From NCBI GenBank assembly GCA_031409655.1, contig JANNXQ010000047.1:1-50064 (forward strand): a stretch of DNA of 50,064 bases, written 5' to 3'. Positions within the stretch are counted from its first letter, which is position 1. Each line of letters begins with the position of its first letter. This document shows positions 7,148-39,622 of this stretch, one piece after another. A program made the translations under genes and the position numbers. Under the pieces are notes generated by a model that had not been told where the DNA came from, ran no database searches, and saw nothing but the letters and a program-made list of their open reading frames with translations. The DNA comes from Chthoniobacteraceae bacterium. Lineage in GTDB: Bacteria > Verrucomicrobiota > Verrucomicrobiia > Chthoniobacterales > Chthoniobacteraceae.

Positions 7148-7238
7148 AAGGAAGAAGGAGGAAGGAGGAAGTAGGAAGTGATCACCGCGCTTCGCGCGCG
7201 CAGGGATTCTGCCTTCTTACTTCTGCCTTCTGCCTTCA
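7148..7238. repeat. Empty 7-bp periodic inverted-repeat element between nrdR and the next gene
   Basis: AAGGAAG-AAGGAGG-AAGGAGG-AAGTAGG vs (minus) TG-AAGGCAG-AAGGCAG-AAGTAAG-AAGGCAG; central CGCGC-TTC-GCGCG. Confidence 0.7.
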
Positions 7239-7724
7239 TTTGAAGAGCTCCGGTTGCAGCTTGCTGGGCTTTGGCCGGCGTTCCAGTTGTTGGATTTCTT
7301 CGATGAATTCGCCGATGTCCTGAAAGTGCCGATAGACCGATGCGTAGCGCACGTAGGCCACTTCATCGAGCCCGTGCAGGCGGTTCATGACTTTCGCGCC
7401 GATGACGTGCGAGGGGATCTCGCGGTGAAATTCGTTCTCGATTTCGAGGATGATTTCGTCCGCGGCCTTTTCGAGCTTTTCCACCGAGACGGGCCGCTTC
7501 TCGCAGGCCTTGATCATCCCGGAGAGGAGCTTCTGTTTGCTCATGGCTTCGCTGCGGCCATCCCGTTTCGCCACGCGGAGATCGTTGCGTTCGATCTCTT
7601 CGTAGGTGGTGAAGCGATGCGTGCAGGCGGCGCATTCTCGGCGGCGTCGAATCGCCTTCCCGTCTTTGGAAAGGCGGGAGTCGATGACTTTATCCTCAAC
7701 TCCTCCGCATTTGGAGCAATACAT
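7236..7724 (-). CDS. nrdR: Transcriptional repressor NrdR
   Basis: CSKC..KVIDSR..IRRRRECAAC..RFTTYE zinc ribbon; KRDG ATP cone; DEVAYVRYASVY. Confidence 0.97.
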   Translation of the reverse strand: MYCSKCGGVEDKVIDSRLSKDGKAIRRRRECAACTHRFTTYEEIERNDLRVAKRDGRSEAMSKQKLLSGMIKACEKRPVSVEKLEKAADEIILEIENEFHREIPSHVIGAKVMNRLHGLDEVAYVRYASVYRHFQDIGEFIEEIQQLERRPKPSKLQPELFK

Positions 7725-12884: not shown

Positions 12885-15800
12885 TCAGCGGCTCTGGCCC
12901 AGATCTTCGTAGTAGCGGCGGACGCGCTCGGCGTATTTCGTGGGCACCGGGTCGCGATCGATGGGGACGAGATTTTCCTTGGAATCGCGGCGCGCGAGTT
13001 CTTCCGAAAGTCGCGAACGCAGTTCGGCGAGCGGCGCGCCGATCTTCGTCTGCACGAGGTCCCAATTTGGCGTGACGCTATGCCGCTTGAATTCCGCGCG
13101 CACGCCCTTGGCGGCTTCGCGGACACGCGCGACTTCGGTGCGAAGGTTGGCGTCGTCGAGCATCTCCTCGACATTGCGCAGCCGGTCCGACCACTCGACA
13201 AAACGCTCGCCCGTCAAAGGACCAGCCATCTCGCCATCGACCGGCCCGCCAGTGCTTCCGCCTTCATTGCCACCCGTGCGGCGACCGCCGCGCTGGCCGG
13301 GCTTGTTGGTGAGTTCTGCGAGACGCGAACCTGCCCGACTGCCCTGGCCCGTAGGACTGCCGCTCTGTGAAGGATCCTGCCCACCGGCCATTTGCCCACC
13401 CTGTCCGGGCTGCTGCCCTTGTCCGGGTTGCTGACTTTGTCCGGGCTGTTGTCCTTGTCCGGGCTGCTGACCTTGTCCGGGTTGCCGTCCTTGTCCGGGT
13501 TGCTGTCCTTGTCCGGGTTGCTGTCCTTGTCCGGGCTGCTGACCTTGTCCGGGCTGCTGCCCTTGTCCGGGCTGCTGCCCTTGTCCAGGCTGCTGACTTT
13601 GTCCGGGTTGCTGACTTTGTCCGGGTTGCTGACTTTGTCCGGGCTGCTGACCTTGTCCGGGCTGCTGACCTTGTCCGGGCTGCTGACCTTGTCCGGGTGG
13701 TTGCCCTTGTCCGGGCTGTTCGCCAGCGCGCGGATCGGAGCCTCCGGGGAGCGCGCCCGTCTCGGGTGCTGGTCCCGGCGTCTCGCCGGGACGAACTTCC
13801 CCCGGTGTCCGCCCTTGCGAATCGCGGCCAGGCTGCTGTGAGTCTGTCGAAGCCTGCGCGGGCAGGACGCCCTCGCCAGTGGCCGGGGCGGGCGCGCTCC
13901 CCGGAGGCTGCGTTTCGCCCGGTTGCCGTGAGTCGGCCGCCATCGCCAGATCCGGACGCGCGCGCGCGATTTCGCGATTGAGTTCCTGCCCGAGCGCCTC
14001 GATCTCCGCTCGCGCCTGTCGCAGCGCCTCCGCTTCATCGCCCAGCACCGCCTCCGCCGCGCGCTCCACACCGGTCTTGAGATCGTTGATTTCCTCCCGC
14101 GCCTTTTGCTCAAACTGCCGCGCCTGCTCATTGAGCCCCCGCTGCGTGAGGATGCCCGTCTTTTCCAAAGTATCGCCAGTGGCCGCCTGCGCGTTCTTCC
14201 GCAGCGCATCATAAAGTTCCTTCGCGAGCAGAGGCTCCGCGGCCTCCGCCTGCTCGCTCACCCGCTTCATGTTTTCCGTCAGCTTGGTGAGATCGCCCTG
14301 CTGCTGCTCGAGTTGCTTGGTCACCTGCTCGCGCTCGCTACTGCCATCGAGGGTGCGGCGCTCGGGCTTCTTCGCCGTCGGCTGCAATTTCTCCGCGAGC
14401 TCCTCCTGCTTCTGCGCGAGTTCGCGCGCATCGGTCCGCATCTGCCGCATGTCTTCATTAAATTGCCCGCTGGTCTTCTTGCGGAATTCATCGCGCAGAT
14501 CCTCCAGGCTTTCCTGCGCCCGCGTGCCGCTGGCCAGCGCCTTCGAAGCCTGCTGCTGTTCCATGGCCTCGGCGGCTTTTTGCACATCGTCGCGCGTCTT
14601 TTCGAGCTGCTTGCGCTCCTCGGAAAATTGCGCCTGCTGCGGGGATTGCTCCATCTTCTGCTTCGTCTCATCGAGATCCGCGAGGAGCTGCTGCTCTTCC
14701 TCGCGCAGCCGCTTGAGCTGGCGGCGGATCTCCTCTTTCTGCTCCTCCGTCTTCGCTTCCTGGAGCGCGGTCTGCAGCTCCTTCACGCGTTCATTGATGT
14801 CGTTCTGTCGCTGCGCCAGTTCCTTGAGGCGATTCAAAATGGCGAGCTGTTCCTTCTGTTCCTCATTCTGCTGCGACTCGGCCTCGCTCTTGGTTTCGTA
14901 GCGCTCCTTCTCATCCTTCATCTCCAGTTCATCGAGCTGCCCCTGCCGGCTCTGCGCACCCTTTCCTTTGCCCTTGCTCTTGCTGATTTGAAACTCGTGC
15001 GCCGCCAGCTTGAGCAGCGCATTGTAGCTGTTCTGTTCCGCCGTCAGCGCCTCGGCGAGCACTGCCGGCACCTTCTCCGCGGCCACGAGTTTGTCCGCGG
15101 CCGACTGCATCTCCGCGACGACCTTTTCCATCAGCGCCTGCGACTTCGGATCTTCGAGCTTCTCGCCGAGTTCCGTCGCCTGCTTGAGCGCTTCCGCTTG
15201 CGAGTCGCGCACTACGGGTTCGTCTTTCAAATACTTCTCGCTCGGATCGGTCCCCGGACGCGCGTCTTCGGCGCGCTGGAGATTCCAGGTCGCGGTGACG
15301 ATTTGCTTTTGAACTTCGGCAAGCTTCTCCGCCTCGCCGCCTCCGCCAGACCCACTGCCTTCACCACTCTGGCTGTCCCCCGGTCGGTAGATTTCTTCAA
15401 AGGGCCGCACTTCGGCAAAATACATGTCCGTCGCGGAGCGGCGCGGCTGACCGTCCGGCCCTGTGTCCTCGGCCCACAGATACCACGAGATGAGTTCGTC
15501 GGGCTTCATCCCGAGTTCTTCCAGCTTCAGCAAATGGGCGAGCTGCTGCTTCTCATCGGCCTTCGTCTCGCGACCCAGTTCCACATCTTGCGAAGGTTTC
15601 CCGGCGACGGTGTAAGTGAGCCCGTAGCGCGCGATCCCGAAGTCGTCCCAGACCTCGGCGCGAAACGCCACTTCCTCGATCGGCGAAACCTTCCGGTCCC
15701 CTTTCGGCGTCGCGATCTTCAACTCTGGCCGGCGATTCGGCGTCGCCTCAACGATGAATTGCGCGGGGATTTTGTTCGCGCGTCCGTCGGCGTCCTTCAG

Positions 15801-16853
15801 CTCCAGGGCAAAGCTCTGACTCGTGCGGATCGGCAGCTCCGTGAGCGTCGCCACGGCTTTGTCGGGATCCACGGTGAGCGGCACCTTCGTCCCGTCCTTC
15901 GCGATCAGGGTCGCGGACTTCACGACCTTGTTGAGTTGAAAGGCGACGTCGAGCTTGGTGCCTTCGACCGCGGTGACGCGCCGGGTGTCGGCGATCTTTT
16001 TCTCCTCCAGCTTCGTGTACTCGGGATAGCGCAGCGTCGCATCCGCGCGGTCCAGCCGCGGGTGTTCAAAGACCTTCACCGTGAAGTCGCGCGTGACTTC
16101 GCCGGCGTATTCGATGCGGTAGGAAAGGTCGCCATCGACTTCGGGCAGACCGCCGCCGAAGACCGGATCATCGAGGTTTTTCACCAGCGGAATGCGCTGC
16201 GGCGGCTGGTTCTTTGGTTGAATGACGAGCACCGCTTCGCTCGGCACGGCGCGGTGAAATTTTGCGAGCACGATGAGCCCCGAGCCGCGTTCGACGGTCG
16301 CGTCGCCGGGCGTCACCGTCACGGGTTCCGCGCTTTTCTCCGCCACCCGCTCGCTGGTTCTGAGCGCCGGTTTCCCGGTGTGATAGGAGAGCGTGAAAAG
16401 TGCCGCGACGAGCGCCGCGACCGCACCGCCCCAAGTCCACAGGCGCGACGTGGGCACGCTATCGATCCAGTCCGCTTTGCGCGCCGCTTCGAGCGTTTGC
16501 TGGATGACGCGTTGCTGGAGGAAGCCGAGTTCGCCAGTCTTCGCATCGGGCTTCTGCTCGACGGCGGTGAGGAGCAGGGTGTGCAATTCCGGGTGCTTGT
16601 TTTCGACCGCGTGCGCGATGCCGAGGTAGTCGGGCTCCCAGCGATTCGTCCGCCGCGCGACGAGCCGCGCGATGATGAAAAGCACGAGGAAGAGCAGCAC
16701 CGCGGGAATGGCGAATCTTTCCCGCAGCGCGTAGAGGATCGCAGCCAGCGCGGTGAAACCGGCGAGCCAGGCGGCCATGGTGCGGAGGTAGAGGAGATTG
16801 CGCTGCCGGGCGACGACGGGTGCGAGGGCGTGTTTGAGGAGCGGCGTGATCAT
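12885..16853 (-). CDS. Large membrane-anchored Ig-like/coiled-coil protein (DUF4175-like)
   Basis: Three TM segments, YPEYT, DDFGI, VRPFEE, long E/Q/K heptads, C-terminal DPVPTKYAERVRRYYEDL. Confidence 0.75.
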   Translation of the reverse strand: MITPLLKHALAPVVARQRNLLYLRTMAAWLAGFTALAAILYALRERFAIPAVLLFLVLFIIARLVARRTNRWEPDYLGIAHAVENKHPELHTLLLTAVEQKPDAKTGELGFLQQRVIQQTLEAARKADWIDSVPTSRLWTWGGAVAALVAALFTLSYHTGKPALRTSERVAEKSAEPVTVTPGDATVERGSGLIVLAKFHRAVPSEAVLVIQPKNQPPQRIPLVKNLDDPVFGGGLPEVDGDLSYRIEYAGEVTRDFTVKVFEHPRLDRADATLRYPEYTKLEEKKIADTRRVTAVEGTKLDVAFQLNKVVKSATLIAKDGTKVPLTVDPDKAVATLTELPIRTSQSFALELKDADGRANKIPAQFIVEATPNRRPELKIATPKGDRKVSPIEEVAFRAEVWDDFGIARYGLTYTVAGKPSQDVELGRETKADEKQQLAHLLKLEELGMKPDELISWYLWAEDTGPDGQPRRSATDMYFAEVRPFEEIYRPGDSQSGEGSGSGGGGEAEKLAEVQKQIVTATWNLQRAEDARPGTDPSEKYLKDEPVVRDSQAEALKQATELGEKLEDPKSQALMEKVVAEMQSAADKLVAAEKVPAVLAEALTAEQNSYNALLKLAAHEFQISKSKGKGKGAQSRQGQLDELEMKDEKERYETKSEAESQQNEEQKEQLAILNRLKELAQRQNDINERVKELQTALQEAKTEEQKEEIRRQLKRLREEEQQLLADLDETKQKMEQSPQQAQFSEERKQLEKTRDDVQKAAEAMEQQQASKALASGTRAQESLEDLRDEFRKKTSGQFNEDMRQMRTDARELAQKQEELAEKLQPTAKKPERRTLDGSSEREQVTKQLEQQQGDLTKLTENMKRVSEQAEAAEPLLAKELYDALRKNAQAATGDTLEKTGILTQRGLNEQARQFEQKAREEINDLKTGVERAAEAVLGDEAEALRQARAEIEALGQELNREIARARPDLAMAADSRQPGETQPPGSAPAPATGEGVLPAQASTDSQQPGRDSQGRTPGEVRPGETPGPAPETGALPGGSDPRAGEQPGQGQPPGQGQQPGQGQQPGQGQQPGQSQQPGQSQQPGQSQQPGQGQQPGQGQQPGQGQQPGQGQQPGQGQQPGQGRQPGQGQQPGQGQQPGQSQQPGQGQQPGQGGQMAGGQDPSQSGSPTGQGSRAGSRLAELTNKPGQRGGRRTGGNEGGSTGGPVDGEMAGPLTGERFVEWSDRLRNVEEMLDDANLRTEVARVREAAKGVRAEFKRHSVTPNWDLVQTKIGAPLAELRSRLSEELARRDSKENLVPIDRDPVPTKYAERVRRYYEDLGQSR
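13392..13715 (-). repeat. 18 x 18-bp coding tandem repeat (PGQGQQ)
   Basis: Units such as CCCGGACAAGGTCAGCAG; translation PGQ[G/S]QQ x18. Confidence 0.95.
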
Positions 16854-20260: not shown

Positions 20261-21262
20261 CTACTTCACCGTCTCCAGCACCCGCTCAATTACCTTCCCC
20301 ACGCTCACGCCTTCCGCTTCGGCGCGGTAGTTCACCAGCACCCGATGCCGCAGCACTGGACCGGCGAGCGCGGTGATGTCTTCCTTGATCACATGGGCGC
20401 GACCGTGCAGGAGGGCGCGCGCCTTCGCTCCGAGGGTCAGGAATTGCGCGGCCCGCGTGCCGGCGCCCCAACTGACCCAGTCATTGATGAAATCCGGCGA
20501 GCCCGCCTGCTTCGGACGCGTGGTGGCCGCGAGACGCACGCCGTAGCGGACGAGGTCTTCGGCGATCGGCACCTTCTTCACCAGCGCATGGAAGCTCAGC
20601 ACGTCTTCCCCGGTGAAAAGCGGCTCGATCTGCGGCCCCGCAGGTGCCGTGGTCCGCTGGACGACGGTGACCTCGTCCGCCTCCGGCAGATAGTCGATGA
20701 CCACATTAAACATGAAACGATCGAGCTGCGCCTCGGGCAGCGGATAGGTGCCTTCCATCTCGATCGGATTCTGCGTCGCGAGCACGAAGAACGGCTCGGG
20801 TAGCGCGTAGCGGCGACCGCTTGCCGTGACCTGATGCTCCTGCATCGCTTCGAGCAGCGCCGCCTGCGTCTTTGGCGGCGTGCGGTTGATTTCGTCGGCG
20901 AGAATCATGTTGCCGAAGATCGGTCCCGGCGTGAAGACGAGCCCGCGCCCATCCGCGCGGTCTTGGAGGATTTCCACGCCGGTGATGTCCGTGGGCATGA
21001 GGTCTGGCGTGAACTGAATGCGCCGGAACTCGAGGTGAAAAATCTGCGCGATCGATTTTACGAGCAGGGTCTTGGCGAGGCCCGGCGCGCCGGTGATGAG
21101 GCAGTGTCCGCCGGCAAAAAGCGCGATCAGGATTTCCTCGATGACGGCGTGCTGGCCAACGATGGCCTTGCCGAGTTCCTTGAGGATCTGCGCCCGCGCG
21201 AGTTGCAGCTTTTCAAAGGTTTCCTTTTCGGAGTTGGGAATGGGAGGGGGCTGGTTGGTCAT
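20261..21262 (-). CDS. moxR: MoxR-family AAA+ ATPase
   Basis: GAPGLAKT, RIQFTPDLMPTDITG, LADEINRTPPKTQAALLEAMQE, ATQNPIEMEGTYPLPEAQLDRF. Confidence 0.97.
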   Translation of the reverse strand: MTNQPPPIPNSEKETFEKLQLARAQILKELGKAIVGQHAVIEEILIALFAGGHCLITGAPGLAKTLLVKSIAQIFHLEFRRIQFTPDLMPTDITGVEILQDRADGRGLVFTPGPIFGNMILADEINRTPPKTQAALLEAMQEHQVTASGRRYALPEPFFVLATQNPIEMEGTYPLPEAQLDRFMFNVVIDYLPEADEVTVVQRTTAPAGPQIEPLFTGEDVLSFHALVKKVPIAEDLVRYGVRLAATTRPKQAGSPDFINDWVSWGAGTRAAQFLTLGAKARALLHGRAHVIKEDITALAGPVLRHRVLVNYRAEAEGVSVGKVIERVLETVK

Positions 21263-21770
21263 GGCAGAGGAGTCGGGAGTCGGGAGTCAGCTTGCGGCGG
21301 ACCCTTGCCGCCGACTGAGCGGTCCGTCGGATGGCGGAGTGGTCTTGGAAAAATCCAGGAAGAAACCGTCCGGTCTCGCGATCATCGAGCCGAGCATTTT
21401 TCCAATCTCAGTGGACGCAGCAGTGAGAATCCGATGTTCATCCTGGGCGATGTATCCACAGTCTTTCTCGAAGTCCAAGGAACTGTCAGTCTCGCTGTTC
21501 TCGCCGTCACAATCGGTGAGCTTGCTGAGGAAATGCGCCGGATACCGCCGCTTCGCCCAGGCCTCGCGGAGGTTCAAACAAACTGAGCGCGAGGACCGCC
21601 GAATCTGGCTGGTGAGTGCAAAACGCTCTTCGTGAGGAAAGTTTTTGCTGAGGTCGAATACCCGCATGGCGAGGTCGTATGCGCGCTGGTAAACAGTGAG
21701 TTCTTTTTCGGAGCGAACAGGCATGGCAGGCGAAATGGTGATTCCTGACTTCTGACTCCGGACACCTTCT
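21263..21770. mobile_element. Four-helix-bundle cassette bounded by inverted 7-bp repeats (GGAGTCG/CTGACTY)
   Basis: GGAGTCG-GGAGTCG-GGAGTCAG at 21269-21290 and CTGACTT-CTGACTC at 21745-21758; abuts the moxR ATG and DUF4159 TGA; mobility is inferred. Confidence 0.55.
21287..21724 (-). CDS. Four helix bundle protein (23S rRNA IVP/TIGR02436 family)
   Basis: L.VYQRAYDLAMRVF.LSK.FP.EERFALTSQIRRSSRSV..N..EAW.KRRY..HF.SKLTD. Confidence 0.92.
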   Translation of the reverse strand: MPVRSEKELTVYQRAYDLAMRVFDLSKNFPHEERFALTSQIRRSSRSVCLNLREAWAKRRYPAHFLSKLTDCDGENSETDSSLDFEKDCGYIAQDEHRILTAASTEIGKMLGSMIARPDGFFLDFSKTTPPSDGPLSRRQGSAAS

Positions 21771-22649
21771 TCAGTGGGTCATCGCGTAGAAGACGATGTT
21801 GATCCCGAGCGGGTAACTCTTCTTCTCGGAGAATTCGCGGAAGTAGTACTGATTCTCGCCCTCGCGCTCCCAGCCGTCGCCGTTGTCGGTATTGTGGCAG
21901 GCGACGACGCAGAGGCGGCCCTTGTCGTCGTTGATCCCGCGGATGTGGACTTCCATCGCGTCGGGGCGTTCCCAAGTTCGACCGGTGTATTGGCTGTCGG
22001 TGCCGGTGCCGATATTCGGGCATTGCAGGTTCAGGTCTTCGGGCAGTTCGAAGACGGCGTGGAAGATGGGATGGGTGCGCGGGATGTCGAAGAACTGGCG
22101 GTCGGGGAAAACGCGGCTCATTTGCTCCGCGAAATTCTCCCACTCATCCTCACCCCAGAAATCATCGACCATCAGGAACCCACCATTGAGCAGGTAACGG
22201 CGGAGGATCGGCACTTCCTCTTCGGTGAACTCCAGGTCGCCCGGCTCGACGATGTAAATCCACGGATAACGAAAGAGTTCCGGGTCGGTGATCTCAAGCA
22301 CCTTGCCATTCGGGTCCACCTTCATCGAAGTCATCTGCTGGAGGCGGTAGGCGAAGTTCAGGTCGGCATCCGGGTAGTCGATGGCCCAGCGCTCATTGCC
22401 TCTAAAGTAGTACCCATTCGAAGTCCGACGCCCAGTGGCCGAGTAGCGGATGCGGACGAAGGTGAAGACGTCCTTTTCAAACCCCGCTTCGTACTTCCAT
22501 TCGGGAGTCGGCACGGAGTTTTGTCCGGCGCGCGGATTGTCGATGGGGATTTGCTGGCTGCGCGAAGATCGGCTCCGAAATTGCGCGAAGGCTCCGCCGC
22601 CGAGGAGGAGGGCCAAAAGGAGGGCGGTGGCGCGGAGAAGTTTCGTCAT
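21771..22649 (-). CDS. DUF4159 domain protein (secreted)
   Basis: Signal peptide; FTFVRIRY, WAIDYPDADLN, YLLNGGFLMVDDFWG, HNTDNGDGWE, GINIVFYAMTH. Confidence 0.9.
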   Translation of the reverse strand: MTKLLRATALLLALLLGGGAFAQFRSRSSRSQQIPIDNPRAGQNSVPTPEWKYEAGFEKDVFTFVRIRYSATGRRTSNGYYFRGNERWAIDYPDADLNFAYRLQQMTSMKVDPNGKVLEITDPELFRYPWIYIVEPGDLEFTEEEVPILRRYLLNGGFLMVDDFWGEDEWENFAEQMSRVFPDRQFFDIPRTHPIFHAVFELPEDLNLQCPNIGTGTDSQYTGRTWERPDAMEVHIRGINDDKGRLCVVACHNTDNGDGWEREGENQYYFREFSEKKSYPLGINIVFYAMTH

Positions 22650-36601: not shown

Positions 36602-36985
36602 ATGACCATCCCACCGCTCAAATACAACCCTGAGGGGCTCATCCCCGCGATCGTGCAAGACGCCTCCTCGCACCGCGTGCTGATGATGGCGTGGATGAAT
36701 GAAGCCGCGTTCCAGGCCACCCTCGCGACGGGCTTCATGAATTTTTGGAGCCGGTCGCGGCAAAAATTTTGGATCAAAGGCGAGACCAGCGGCCACACCC
36801 AGAAGGTGGTGCGCTGGGCCGTCGATTGCGACGCGGACACGCTGCTCTTTGAAGTCGAGCAGATCGGCGGCGCCTGCCACACCGGCTTTCAGAGCTGCTT
36901 CTTCACGGCCTATGCGCCGGATGGCACGGCGCTGGAGACGACGGAGCGGCGCGTCTTCGATCCGGAGAAAACTTACAGCAAGTAA
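36602..36985 (+). CDS. hisI: Phosphoribosyl-AMP cyclohydrolase
   Basis: [36 protein letters not shown]. Confidence 0.97.
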
Positions 36986-37108
36986 CAAGTAACAATTAGC
37001 ATTTAGCATTTTCGAAGTGAGGCGCTTCGCGCGTCGCAGACGAACCAACCTCCGCGCCGCAGGCGCTTCTCTTCCAAATGCTAAATGCTAAATCTCAAAT
37101 GCTAAATT
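36978..37108. repeat. Empty 7-bp periodic inverted-repeat element between hisI and trpE
   Basis: GCAAGTA-ACAAGTA-ACAATTA-GCATTTA-GCATTTT ... CAAATGC-TAAATGC-TAAATCT-CAAATGC; includes the hisI TAA and trpE ATG. Confidence 0.8.
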
Positions 37109-38601
37109 CCCTTCAACCTTCGCTCGCTGAGTTCCGTGAACTCGCAAAGCGTGGAAATCTGATCCCGGTCTTCGCCGAACTGATCGCGGATGCGGAATCG
37201 CCCGTGTCCGCCTTTCACAAACTCGCCGAGGGGAGCGACTACGCGTTCCTTTTCGAGTCCGTAGAGAAGCACGACCAGGCGGGCCGCTATTCATTCGTCG
37301 GCGTGGATCAACGCGTCGTCTTTGAAAGTCGCGGCACGTCCATCCACATCGTGGAGGATGGCAATGCTCGCGATTTTGTCACGACGCGCGACCCGCTCGC
37401 GGAACTCGAGGAACTGATGCAGCGCTATCGCTATGTCTCCTCACCCGCGCTCGCCGATGCGCGCTTCGCCGGTGGCGCCGTGGGGTTCCTCACTTACGAC
37501 CTCGTCCGCTTTTTCGAACCGACCGTGCCGCCTTCGCCACCCGACGATCTCGGCCTGCCGGAGAGCCTCTTTACGATCACCGAGACGCTGCTCATCTTCG
37601 ATCACCGCACGCGCCGCCTGCGCATCGTGGCGAATGCGCACATCGACGGCGATCCCGAGACCGCCTACGGCCGGGCTGCCGATGCCATCGCCCGGACGAT
37701 TGCGAAACTGAATGAACCCGCGCGCCTGCCAATGCTGCCGATCGCGCCCGCGCCGGAAGTCGGGCCGCCCGTGGGCAACACCACTCGCGAGGAGTACATG
37801 CGCATGGTCTCAGAGGGGCAGGAGTTCATCCGCGCCGGGGATATTTTTCAGTTCGTCCCGTCGCAGCGTTTCGAGACCGACTACACCGGCGACCCGCTGA
37901 CCCTCTACCGCACCCTGCGCTTCGTGAATCCGTCGCCTTACATGTTCTGCATGAAATTCGCGGGCCGCTTTGCGTTAGTTGGGAGTTCGCCCGAGGTGCA
38001 TGTCCGCGCGATCAATGGCCGCATTGAAATCCGCCCCATCGCCGGCACCCGCCTCCGGGGCAAAACGCCCACTGAAGACGACGCGAATGCCGCCGAGTTA
38101 CTCGCCGATCCGAAGGAACGCGCCGAGCACCTCATGCTCGTCGATCTCGCCCGCAACGACGTTGGCCGCGCCAGCGAGTTCGGTTCGGTGAAAGTGACGG
38201 ACTTCATGACCATCGAGAAGTACAGCCACGTCATGCATATCGTCTCCAATGTCGAAGGCCGGCTGCGTCCCGACCTCACCGCTTACGACGTGATGCGGGC
38301 CACCTTCCCCGCTGGCACCGTGAGCGGCAGCCCGAAAGTGCGCGCCCTGCAAATCATCAACGGCTGTGAGAAAAACAAACGCGGCGTCTATAGCGGCGCG
38401 GTTGGTTACTTCGGCTTCGATGGTAACACCGACTCCTGCATCGCGCTGCGCACCGTCGTGCTAAAAGACGGCAAAGCCTACGTGCAAGCCGGCGCCGGAG
38501 TCGTCGCCGACTCCACCCCGGAGGGCGAGTACCAGGAGACCGTCAACAAAGCCATGGGCATGATGTCCGCCATCGCCCGGGCGAAGGCCTGCAGCATTTA
38601 G
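37099..38601 (+). CDS. trpE: Anthranilate synthase component I
   Basis: LFESVE..GRYSF, GDIFQFVPSQR, NPSPYMF, GSSPE, PIAGT, EHLMLVDLARND, PAGTVSGSPK. Confidence 0.96.
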   Translation: MLNSLQPSLAEFRELAKRGNLIPVFAELIADAESPVSAFHKLAEGSDYAFLFESVEKHDQAGRYSFVGVDQRVVFESRGTSIHIVEDGNARDFVTTRDPLAELEELMQRYRYVSSPALADARFAGGAVGFLTYDLVRFFEPTVPPSPPDDLGLPESLFTITETLLIFDHRTRRLRIVANAHIDGDPETAYGRAADAIARTIAKLNEPARLPMLPIAPAPEVGPPVGNTTREEYMRMVSEGQEFIRAGDIFQFVPSQRFETDYTGDPLTLYRTLRFVNPSPYMFCMKFAGRFALVGSSPEVHVRAINGRIEIRPIAGTRLRGKTPTEDDANAAELLADPKERAEHLMLVDLARNDVGRASEFGSVKVTDFMTIEKYSHVMHIVSNVEGRLRPDLTAYDVMRATFPAGTVSGSPKVRALQIINGCEKNKRGVYSGAVGYFGFDGNTDSCIALRTVVLKDGKAYVQAGAGVVADSTPEGEYQETVNKAMGMMSAIARAKACSI

Positions 38602-39055
38602 GATTTAGGATTTAACAATTGGATGTTTGACGCTGCGCGTGATGGACAAGGACGAACTCAAGCTGCGAACGAAAGCCTTTGGGCTTCGTGTGATGAAATT
38701 GGTGCGCGCGATGCCCAAGGACGTGGTGGGGCGTACTTTGGCCGGTCAACTGATTCGGTCCGGAACGTCCGTCGGTGCAAATTACCGATCCGCCTGTCGA
38801 GGCAGATCGAAAGCAGAATGGCTGGCCAAACTCGGGATCTGTCTGGAAGAAGCCGATGAGAGTGCCCACTGGCTGGAGCTCATCATGGAGGACGGAATGC
38901 TCCCGAGGAAACGCGTCGAACCACTCTGGAAGGAAGCCGACGAACTCTGCGCGATCTTCTTCACCGCGATTCAATCCGGGCGCGCGTAGTCCAACGCTTC
39001 CGCGCGAAGCGCCTCGCTTCCAAATGCTAAATGTTAAATCCTAATTCCTAAATGC
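38594..39055. mobile_element. Four-helix-bundle cassette bounded by inverted 7-bp repeats (GGATTTA/TAAATCC)
   Basis: Left GCATTTA-GGATTTA-GGATTTA-ACAATTG; reverse complement of right GCATTTA-GGAATTA-GGATTTA-ACATTTA-GCATTTG; mobility is inferred. Confidence 0.6.
38642..38989 (+). CDS. Four helix bundle protein (TIGR02436 family)
   Basis: LKLRTKAFGLRVMKL..QLIRSGTSVGANYRSACRGRSKAEWLAKLGICLEEADES..WLEL. Confidence 0.93.
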   Translation: MDKDELKLRTKAFGLRVMKLVRAMPKDVVGRTLAGQLIRSGTSVGANYRSACRGRSKAEWLAKLGICLEEADESAHWLELIMEDGMLPRKRVEPLWKEADELCAIFFTAIQSGRA

Positions 39056-39058
39056 CCG

Positions 39059-39622
39059 ATGCTCCTCGTCCTCGATAACTACGATTCCTTCACCTACAAC
39101 CTCGTGCAGTATTTCGGCGAGTTGGGGGCCGAGATTTTGGTGAAGCGAAATGACGAGATCACGCTTGCGGAGATTGCTGCCCTGAAGCCGGAGCGGATCG
39201 TCATTTCACCTGGGCCATGCACGCCGAATGAGGCGGGCATCAGTTGCGAGGTGATCCGCGAGTTCGGGGAGCACACCCCGCTCCTTGGTGTCTGTCTCGG
39301 GCATCAATGCATCGGTCACGTCTTCGGCGGCGACGTGGTGCGGGCGGATCGGCTGATGCATGGGAAGACGTCGCCCATCCTGCACCACGGACAGGGCGTT
39401 TTTGCCGGGCTGCCAAATCCTTTTGAGGCCACGCGCTACCACTCGCTGCTGGTGAAGCGCGACACTTTCCCGGCCGCGCTGGAGATCACGGCGGAGACGG
39501 CGGAAAAGGAAGTGATGGGCCTCCGCCATCGCACCTTCCCGATCCACGGCGTGCAGTTCCATCCCGAGTCGATCCTCACCGTCGAAGGCAAGTCGCTCCT
39601 GCGAAACTTCCTCACACTCTGA
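39059..39622 (+). CDS. trpG: Anthranilate synthase/ADC synthase glutamine amidotransferase
   Basis: [35 protein letters not shown]. Confidence 0.95.

Follow-up and report, generated by a model that had tools for sequence, protein, structure and literature searches.

The spacer between trpE and trpG in a 50,064-nt stretch of DNA from a Chthoniobacteraceae bacterium (Verrucomicrobiota; contig JANNXQ010000047.1 of the assembly GCA_031409655.1; the whole stretch is referred to below as the window) is an intervening-sequence-type cassette, in which a gene of the PF05635/TIGR02436 family occupies the loop of a stem of about 40 bp with arms built of heptamers. Our favored reading, to which we assign a probability of about 0.6, is that such intervening sequence (IVS) cassettes reside at operon junctions, that their arms carry the codons lost by the adjacent genes, and that the arms would pair in the mRNA, with the stem either cut by RNase III or taking part in translational coupling by unfolding. 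The elements occupy the few bases between the stop and the start codons of adjacent co-transcribed genes. At three operon junctions (hisI/trpE, trpE/trpG and nrdR/next gene) empty sites from sister genomes show which sequence was replaced and which codons were donated.

The cassette, 468 bases in all, separates trpE (anthranilate synthase component I, 37078..38601, plus strand; PF00425, E 5e-89, and PF04715) from trpG (glutamine amidotransferase, 39059..39622, plus strand; PF00117, E 3e-60) by 457 nt that contain the cargo open reading frame (ORF). The cargo gene (38642..38989, plus strand) encodes a 115-aa protein of the four-helix-bundle 23S rRNA intervening-sequence family, matching the PF05635 profile ‘23S rRNA-intervening sequence protein’ (E 6e-14, 52.6 bits with the cut-off of 33.8) and the TIGR02436 profile ‘four helix bundle protein’ (E 2e-20). 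Its start is aligned with the GTG start of the orthologues in two relatives (L004 and L010). The left arm (38594..38633, plus strand; CATTTAG, GATTTAG, GATTTAA and further units) and the right arm (39016..39055, plus strand; CCAAATG, CTAAATG, TTAAATC, CTAATTC, CTAAATG) are 40 nt long each and 80% complementary, and both are tandem arrays with period 7, those reported by Tandem Repeats Finder (TRF) being at 38596-38614 and 39022-39055. The arm motif has 12 matches in the window compared to 1.7 expected, and 12 matches were reached in none of 100 shuffles.

The TAG codon of trpE (38599-38601) ends the left arm's first heptamer, CATTTAG (38595-38601). The complement of this unit, CTAAATG (39048-39054), is followed by four nucleotides, CCCG, and then by the trpG ATG at 39059. 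These coordinates agree with a preliminary description of the locus, which had also stated that stop codons occur in all three frames of the upstream arm; indeed, TAG at 38599, TAG at 38606 and TAA at 38613 fall one per reading frame. Given that seven is not a multiple of three, a stop-bearing unit repeated three times closes all frames, and hence any insertion phase terminates the upstream gene. The description further ascribed ATG codons in several frames to the downstream arm: such codons are present at 39024, 39031 and 39052, in two frames only, and none of them is in the frame of trpG. The trpE stop is separated from the cargo ATG by 40 nt, and the cargo stop from the trpG ATG by 69 nt, with no Shine-Dalgarno motif ahead of either ATG. 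Site scanning detected no promoter-like or terminator-like site within the cassette. The right arm was rejected as an intrinsic terminator, being followed by CCCGATG with no T-run; between 36800 and 39300 one terminator-like site was found, in the loop of the hisI/trpE hairpin, compared to 2.4 expected from shuffles. The only joint across the cargo seen in DNA contigs, of 38613 to 39002 with 22 other letters in between, proved to be the loop of the copy on contig C177, which matches through its arms, and not an empty allele.

Pairing of the arms, as had been suggested earlier, was examined by folding predictions. The 496-nt segment of the transcript covering the cassette has a predicted energy of −200.2 kcal/mol (z −4.44, none of 100 shuffles as good), and the arms are paired in both the minimum-energy and the centroid predicted structures. 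The predicted fold places the trpE TAG within the stem, about 8 pairs from one foot, and puts the trpG ATG 4 nt outside it, past the other foot. For the hairpin at the hisI/trpE junction the prediction is stronger in terms of the z-score (−6.93, none of 200 shuffles as good).

To define the sequence preceding the insertion, orthologous junctions were retrieved from relatives, with 25 trpE/trpG junctions scored. The site is empty in a genome of the same genus (L002), where trpE ends with ..GCC TGA followed by cc and then by ATG (TGAccATG), and the junction is similarly tight in most of the 25 relatives. The same cassette is found at this junction in three other genera and in a metagenome-assembled genome (MAG) of Chthoniobacter sp., and in these genomes, as here, trpE runs into the arm and ends with ATT-TAG or ATT-TAA. 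The trpG gene retained its own start: it is ATG in 25 of the 25 junctions, with 21 of them reading MLLV, then I or L, then DN, and in the window this conserved native ATG lies 4 nt beyond the arm. In L044, the Chthoniobacter sp. MAG, trpG starts directly at the last ATG of the arm. A relative from another genus (L019) has lost the cargo, and keeps the first ~20 bases of the cargo gene along with a trpE ending with ATT-TAG; this 5’-remnant demonstrates that cargo-less hairpins can derive from full cassettes. The cargo gene is frameshifted at the same junction in L004, which represents one of the three genera.

The junction between hisI and trpE carries a hairpin without cargo. The hisI gene (phosphoribosyl-AMP cyclohydrolase, 36602..36985, plus strand; PF01502, E 3e-34) is followed by a left arm consisting of CAAGTAA and TTAGCAT arrays (36979..37011; TRF, inverted repeats and fold), a G+C-rich loop of 64 nt that holds a small GCGCTTCGCGCG hairpin (37012..37075), and a right arm of 4.6 AAATGCT units (37076..37108), all on the plus strand. 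The hisI TAA (36983-36985) is inside the CAAGTAA array (2.4 units, 36979-36995), and the trpE ATG at 37078 together with a second in-frame ATG at 37099 is inside the AAATGCT array (37076-37107), as the preliminary description had it for the hisI TAA and a trpE ATG; both the start and the stop of trpE are therefore located within repeat arms. Empty sites of three genomes from the same genus read ..tcATGAcc.., ..gcATGAct.. and ..TGAcATG.., and about 131 nt of hairpin stand here in place of this tight junction. The last two codons of hisI and its TAA are arm sequence. The N-terminus of TrpE is MLNS (or MLNAKSQMLNS) before the conserved LQPSLAEF, and a sister genome has MPTH in this place; since trpE aligns with the same-genus orthologues only from LQPSLAEF, its start and first four codons are arm sequence as well.

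The third junction follows nrdR (7236..7724, minus strand; PF22811 and PF03477, the NrdR zinc ribbon and ATP-cone), where a hairpin without cargo (7148..7237, minus strand) has a GAAGGCA-type 5’ arm and a CTTCCTC-type 3’ arm in the gene sense. As noted earlier, the nrdR TGA is at the start of the arm, overlapping the first unit of the array at 7207-7237. The empty site in a same-genus genome is ..caaGTGAtcgc.., with overlapping stop and start. AATGA flanks this hairpin on both sides, its left copy being the nrdR stop and its right copy the start of the next gene; this is the only repeat resembling a target duplication, and none is seen at hisI/trpE or trpE/trpG. Taken together, the tight junctions of the same-genus empty sites mean that the arms replaced gene ends: the arriving element overwrote them, and the arms now carry the hisI stop, the trpE start and the trpE stop. 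Thus the earlier proposal that repeat arms supply stop and start codons stands for these three codons and fails for trpG, which keeps its native ATG.

Several other features of these junctions were recorded. Small GCGCTTCGCGCG-like hairpins are present in the loops of both cargo-less elements of the window (37020-37035 and 7186-7197), and a related sequence, CGCGAAGCGCC, is found at 39002-39013, just inside the right arm of the cassette; the recurring hairpin could represent a conserved internal part of the element. In one same-genus genome (L003, G003) the first units of the left arm at trpE/trpG are followed by 301 nt and no right arm, the 301-nt stretch containing an unrelated ORF of 80 codons with no significant Pfam match, which would make the junction a site bearing a scar or one where the cargo was exchanged. 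Two relatives (L029 and L026 from G031 and G017) have other hairpins between trpE and trpG, one with tandem arms of the CACGGAG type with a unit of ~9 bases (172 nt) and the second being a perfect palindrome rich in G+C (154 nt). It would seem that tight junctions are colonized repeatedly.

The whole assembly contains ten PF05635 genes, and all ten are located between inverted tandem-repeat arms. The arm unit differs between copies, being a heptamer in nine cassettes and a hexamer in one; in the latter (contig C23, 6200-6850; CGTCCT / GAGGAC) the 6-base unit shows that the period is not strictly fixed. One copy is a second cassette in the window, in the minus orientation (21262..21773; PF05635, E 1e-28; arms of the GAGTCAG/CTGACTC type). 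In the gene sense, the upstream TGA (21773-21771) is followed by an arm at about 21759-21737, the PF05635 gene (21287..21724) and the right arm (21290-21268), whose first unit holds the cargo TGA; the ATG of the next gene (21262-21260) comes 5 nt after the arm. The flanking genes, encoding a DUF4159 protein and a MoxR-type AAA ATPase, are both co-oriented with the cargo.

TRF was applied to the 6.85-Mb assembly, and inverted pairs were counted within 1.5 kb. Period 7 prevails, with 1462 arrays and 217 inverted pairs, compared to 736 arrays and 46 pairs for period 5, 531 arrays and 16 pairs for period 8, and 271 arrays and no pairs for period 10. This yields 202 non-overlapping elements with a gap of up to 460 nt, a few of which, pairs of two-copy G+C-rich arrays, are probably due to chance. 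Nearly all of them have no cargo, the loops being mostly 17–100 nt. Coding strands were called in 240 nt on each side by a codon-usage score trained on this genome; 63 of the 202 elements have at least one side uncalled. The flanking genes of the 139 elements called on both sides are co-directional in 103 cases, divergent in 32 and convergent in four. Rough home-made gene calls, which cover 81% of the genome, give equal numbers of convergent and divergent neighbor pairs (660 vs 652). The elements hence avoid spaces between two gene ends and keep ahead of gene starts, and on the same counts (4 of 139 between convergent genes vs 32 between divergent ones) we rejected repetitive palindromes of the REP/BIME type (repetitive extragenic palindromes and bacterial interspersed mosaic elements).

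Among the 103 co-directional elements, 63 have the upstream stop in the last 20 nt ahead of the left arm, 28 have it between 2 nt before the start of the arm and 47 nt beyond it, and one has it 21 nt upstream. The first in-frame downstream ATG was scored in 102 cases: 44 have it 0–20 nt past the right arm, 12 within the arm and 17 more than 20 nt downstream, and in the other 29 the frame is open upstream through the element. At one locus (contig C239, 17200-20100) a GTGAATG/ATTCACC hairpin at about 590-625 is seemingly read through in-frame within an ORF of a family-9 glycosyltransferase (heptosyltransferase), and a second array at about 133-160 is just ahead of the conserved N-terminus of this glycosyltransferase.

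The generality of this arrangement was assessed with a profile of five paralogues, which retrieved 598 relatives in species-representative genomes. The best 80 of these loci were examined; they come from Verrucomicrobiota, Planctomycetota, Lentisphaerota, Chloroflexota, Acidobacteriota, Bacteroidota, Cyanobacteria, Patescibacteria and other phyla. Period-7 arrays are present in the flanks of 75 of the 80 loci, and strict inverted pairs in 54. By a crude open-frame test, which left 32 of the 63 scored loci uncalled on both sides, the neighbors are co-oriented with the cargo in 19 cases vs one upstream and in 16 vs three downstream. In 18 of 19 loci the stop of the upstream gene falls between 19 nt ahead of the arm start and 4 nt past it. 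The median arm length is 4.5 to 4.6 units.

The 64 loci with arrays on both sides reveal a pronounced asymmetry of the arms. GATT is part of the unit in 41 left arms and in no right arm, AATC in one left arm and 42 right arms, and the left arm has more G than C in 59 loci. Stop codons occur in 38 left and 20 right arms, and ATG in 22 left arms and a single right arm. The asymmetries of GATT/AATC, ATG and G over C show that the element is strongly polar relative to its gene. The ATG-bearing right arm of the trpE/trpG cassette is consequently an exception and not a rule, and the provision of start codons by the downstream arm does not hold as a general principle.

Similarity to the IVSs of Coxiella and Leptospira 23S rRNA genes underlies our understanding of the cassette. 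According to the sections of PMC4990558 used here, the Coxiella IVS is 428–444 nt long, is inserted in helix 45 of the 23S rRNA, and has an S23p ORF and a 28-bp terminal stem, the ORF being preceded by two or three GACAGAT heptamers in tandem, whose copy number varies between strains. RNase III cleaved it in vitro halfway along the stem, where the first repeat begins; the excised RNA decays rapidly, and S23p seems not to be made in vivo, while in Leptospira the remaining stem keeps the rRNA pieces together (same sections). The element of the window shares with them a PF05635/TIGR02436 protein encoded in the loop, a long stem made by its terminal inverted repeats, a stem region with tandem heptamers and the lack of an own promoter, being probably read within the host transcript (PMC4990558, in the same part). 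The comparison with rRNA IVSs made in the preliminary description is upheld in this respect, the cargo belonging to the rRNA-IVS protein family and the Coxiella stem also having heptamers. Unlike the known IVSs, the element is located between operon genes rather than in rRNA helix 9, 25 or 45, its arms hold stop and start codons of the neighbors, and about 200 relatives without cargo share its genome. Only for the rRNA elements has cutting by RNase III been shown. The assembly contains the RNase III gene (rnc) and no 23S gene, and no IVS protein was found in the 23S genes of five relatives (four of the same family and one of the same order). The 23S gene of one same-family relative (G023) has an insert of ~275 nt (L033, 3775-4049) that does not match PF05635 and whose short inverted repeat is not built of heptamers; on the rRNA strand it has an ORF resembling, by eye, a small GIY-YIG nuclease.

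By this homology, the cassette would be read as a part of the trp operon mRNA without a promoter of its own, and its arms would pair in that mRNA, with the trpE stop inside one foot of the stem and the trpG start just outside the other. RNase III would then cut mid-stem, as in the Coxiella and Leptospira 23S elements, and release the cargo RNA; the trpE piece would retain the stop and the trpG piece the start, and the two might remain joined through the lower stem. Were the stem left uncut, a ribosome terminating at the end of trpE might melt the foot of the stem and expose the trpG start, that is, coupling by RNA unfolding in the sense of PMC12548453, as far as its sections used here describe it. 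Cutting of the trp mRNA stem by RNase III is the most likely event, and it would be the best-founded mechanism, on grounds purely of homology. Systems coupled by unfolding (phage f1 VII-IX, MS2 coat-lysis, rpmI-rplT) resemble the cassette in that the upstream frame enters a hairpin ending just before the downstream start (PMC12548453, same sections). They differ in having short local hairpins, whereas here a predicted 40-bp stem closes a gene-bearing loop of 380 nt.

A number of observations weigh against this reading. In linear distance, the 457 nt between the trpE stop and the trpG start are too far for ordinary re-initiation, the native trpG ATG is conserved outside the arm, and an RNase III cut inside the mRNA could equally destabilize trpG. 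ATG is nearly absent from the right arms in other phyla. In 11 of the 103 co-directional elements the upstream stop is far downstream, the frame being open through the element. The two largest hairpin families of the genome (GAACATC, 66 copies, and AAACGCC, 49 copies) have neither stops nor fixed polarity, and the predicted fold of the nrdR hairpin is weak (z −2.0, 7 of 200 shuffles as good). Both tests for selection at the RNA level were negative as well. The sense strand of the 103 co-directional elements showed no excess of G·U over A·C (99 vs 108, binomial p = 0.58; the other arm positions are 2651 Watson-Crick and 152 of other kinds), and the RNA folding energy had no strand bias, with sense vs antisense counts of 25 vs 24 and 28 vs 21. 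There is thus no sign of selection for pairing in the transcript, and the arms may be complementary just because they form an inverted repeat at the DNA level. Five orthologous trpE/trpG cassettes were compared by eye, and one mirrored change was seen (both arms have GGATTTA here and GGATGTA in the Chthoniobacter sp. MAG), which is too little to count given the ambiguous register of the repeats.

These results bear directly on the explanation that the elements are selfish DNA hairpins akin to miniature inverted-repeat transposable elements (MITEs). The arms would then be terminal inverted repeats serving the movement of DNA, folding of the mRNA would be incidental, involving neither processing nor coupling, and the placement at stops and starts would reflect the choice of targets or the survival of harmless insertions. 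Besides agreeing with the two negative tests, this is consistent with the inverted termini, with about 200 copies belonging to several heptamer families, with both polarities observed in the two largest families, with presence and absence varying among genomes of one genus, and with the cargo-less derivative that retains a cargo-gene remnant. The nesting of hairpins points the same way: on contig C179 (3615-4916) a PF05635 gene is split after about 78 profile positions by a hairpin with another unit, and its frame is lost beyond. Nevertheless, we consider this explanation rather improbable. The full-length partner encodes PF05635, which is no known transposase, and AATGA at nrdR is the sole duplication, none being consistent. 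Selfish repeats usually collect at convergent gene ends, where only 4 of the 139 elements are found, and the cargo shares the orientation of the host operon (19:1 and 16:3). Fixed polarity of the arms relative to the cargo in other phyla (GATT in 41 of 64 left and 0 of 64 right arms, G over C in 59 of 64 left arms) and processing of the homologous rRNA element by RNase III (PMC4990558, in the sections used here) also argue against it.

A different view of the junctions is offered by mycobacterial interspersed repetitive units, or MIRUs, which are small repeats at stop/start junctions of co-transcribed genes that leave the downstream gene translatable (PMC12548453, sections used here). The relay proposed for them would have ribosomes restart on the cargo or a short ORF and be handed over to the downstream gene with no cutting of RNA. 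A MIRU-like element would be expected at overlapping stop and start codons, with an internal ORF coupled at −4 to the next gene; the empty sites described above read ATGA, GTGA or TGAccATG. In cassettes of the AAGGATG type each left-arm unit equals AAGGA plus ATGA, which places a run of purines 6 nt ahead of a TGA-overlapping ATG, and three cargo genes (contigs C63, C184 and C12) start at such an arm ATG. This ATGA coupling is a trait of the AAGGATG-type arms and not of the trpE/trpG cassette. A cargo stop in or just before the right arm, the preponderance of ATG in left arms of other phyla (22 of 64 vs 1 of 64) and the MIRU precedent itself (PMC12548453, in that part) are also in line with a relay. 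On the other hand, the trpE/trpG gaps of 40 and 69 nt with no Shine-Dalgarno motif are poor distances for re-initiation by the account in the same sections of PMC12548453, and the coupling distance is far larger than in MIRUs unless the stem counts. Cassettes persist with broken cargo genes (a frameshift in G007; contigs C144 and C179), and Coxiella S23p seems not to be made in vivo (PMC4990558, sections used here). Compared by description only, MIRUs are not presented in the sections of PMC12548453 used here as tandem-heptamer hairpins or as carriers of a four-helix-bundle gene. Overall, we regard a relay of this kind as unlikely.

In one more explanation, the heptamer runs would be binding sites of the cargo pentamer or of a host RNA-binding protein, controlling translation of the downstream gene or marking the element for copying, and pairing would be secondary. 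Pentamer formation is described for relatives of the cargo protein (Lin et al. 2006, as cited in the sections of PMC4990558 used here), and the arms have a median of 4.5 to 4.6 units; each paralogue in the genome has its own unit, and the GATT core and the strand polarity are conserved across phyla. Beggiatoaceae heptamers upstream of gene starts were also proposed to be regulator sites (PMC4679880, sections used here). The latter TAACTGA repeats, known also from Cyanobacteria and Bacteroidetes, are tandem heptamers a few bases from starts, with no Shine-Dalgarno motifs and a scattered distribution over phyla. Unlike the arrays of the window type, which form inverted pairs, have many unit types and enclose a gene in full-length members, they repeat one unit in direct orientation, these sections reporting just one inverted case. 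An excess of heptamers in bacterial genomes was described by Mrazek et al. 2007 (as cited in the same sections of PMC4679880). Co-variation of the protein and the unit would, however, be expected from simple co-inheritance as well, and most hairpin families in this assembly have no cognate intact cargo gene, so binding as the primary role of the arms appears improbable to us. The selfish-hairpin, relay and binding-site explanations overlap one another.

A likeness of the cargo to Avd, the accessory protein of diversity-generating retroelements, was also considered. The four-helix-bundle fold is homologous, the PF05635/Avd likeness being noted in PMC10053308, and the protein of the second cassette in the window scores 45.1 bits with the bAvd profile (cut-off 40). 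Unlike in diversity-generating retroelements, no reverse transcriptase or template repeat was seen beside the cassettes read, in a search that was not systematic. As a feature of the window apart from the cassettes, an 18-base unit repeated 17.8 times (89% matches, 13398-13718) lies inside a minus-strand ORF of 1322 codons (12885..16853), where it would encode a 6-residue protein repeat.

To our knowledge, no function or origin has been established for rRNA intervening sequences and their conserved small protein since the early 1990s, and we know of no explanation for the excess of 7-base repeats in bacterial genomes. In the literature outside subscription journals we found no description of heptamer-armed PF05635 cassettes between protein-coding genes. 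New here are the matched empty sites, the genome-wide placement statistics and the two negative tests for RNA-level selection. A broader reading, tentative and rather doubtful in our estimate, is that heptamer-armed cassettes and their cargo-less derivatives are cross-phylum mRNA intervening elements, which would enter stop/start junctions of operons, be folded out of the transcript and cut by RNase III like their relatives in 23S rRNA, have arms acting as frame-independent adaptors and be copied by a pentameric cargo protein that reads about five units. The adaptors would consist of stops in three frames, ATGA or TAAATG junctions and right arms free of ATG, such that both neighbors stay translatable. 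If true, this would explain both the puzzle of the rRNA IVSs and the excess of heptamer repeats. If mRNAs are routinely split at such elements, then the annotation of operons, the calling of start codons and translational-coupling models would have to be adjusted for many phyla of soil and water bacteria.

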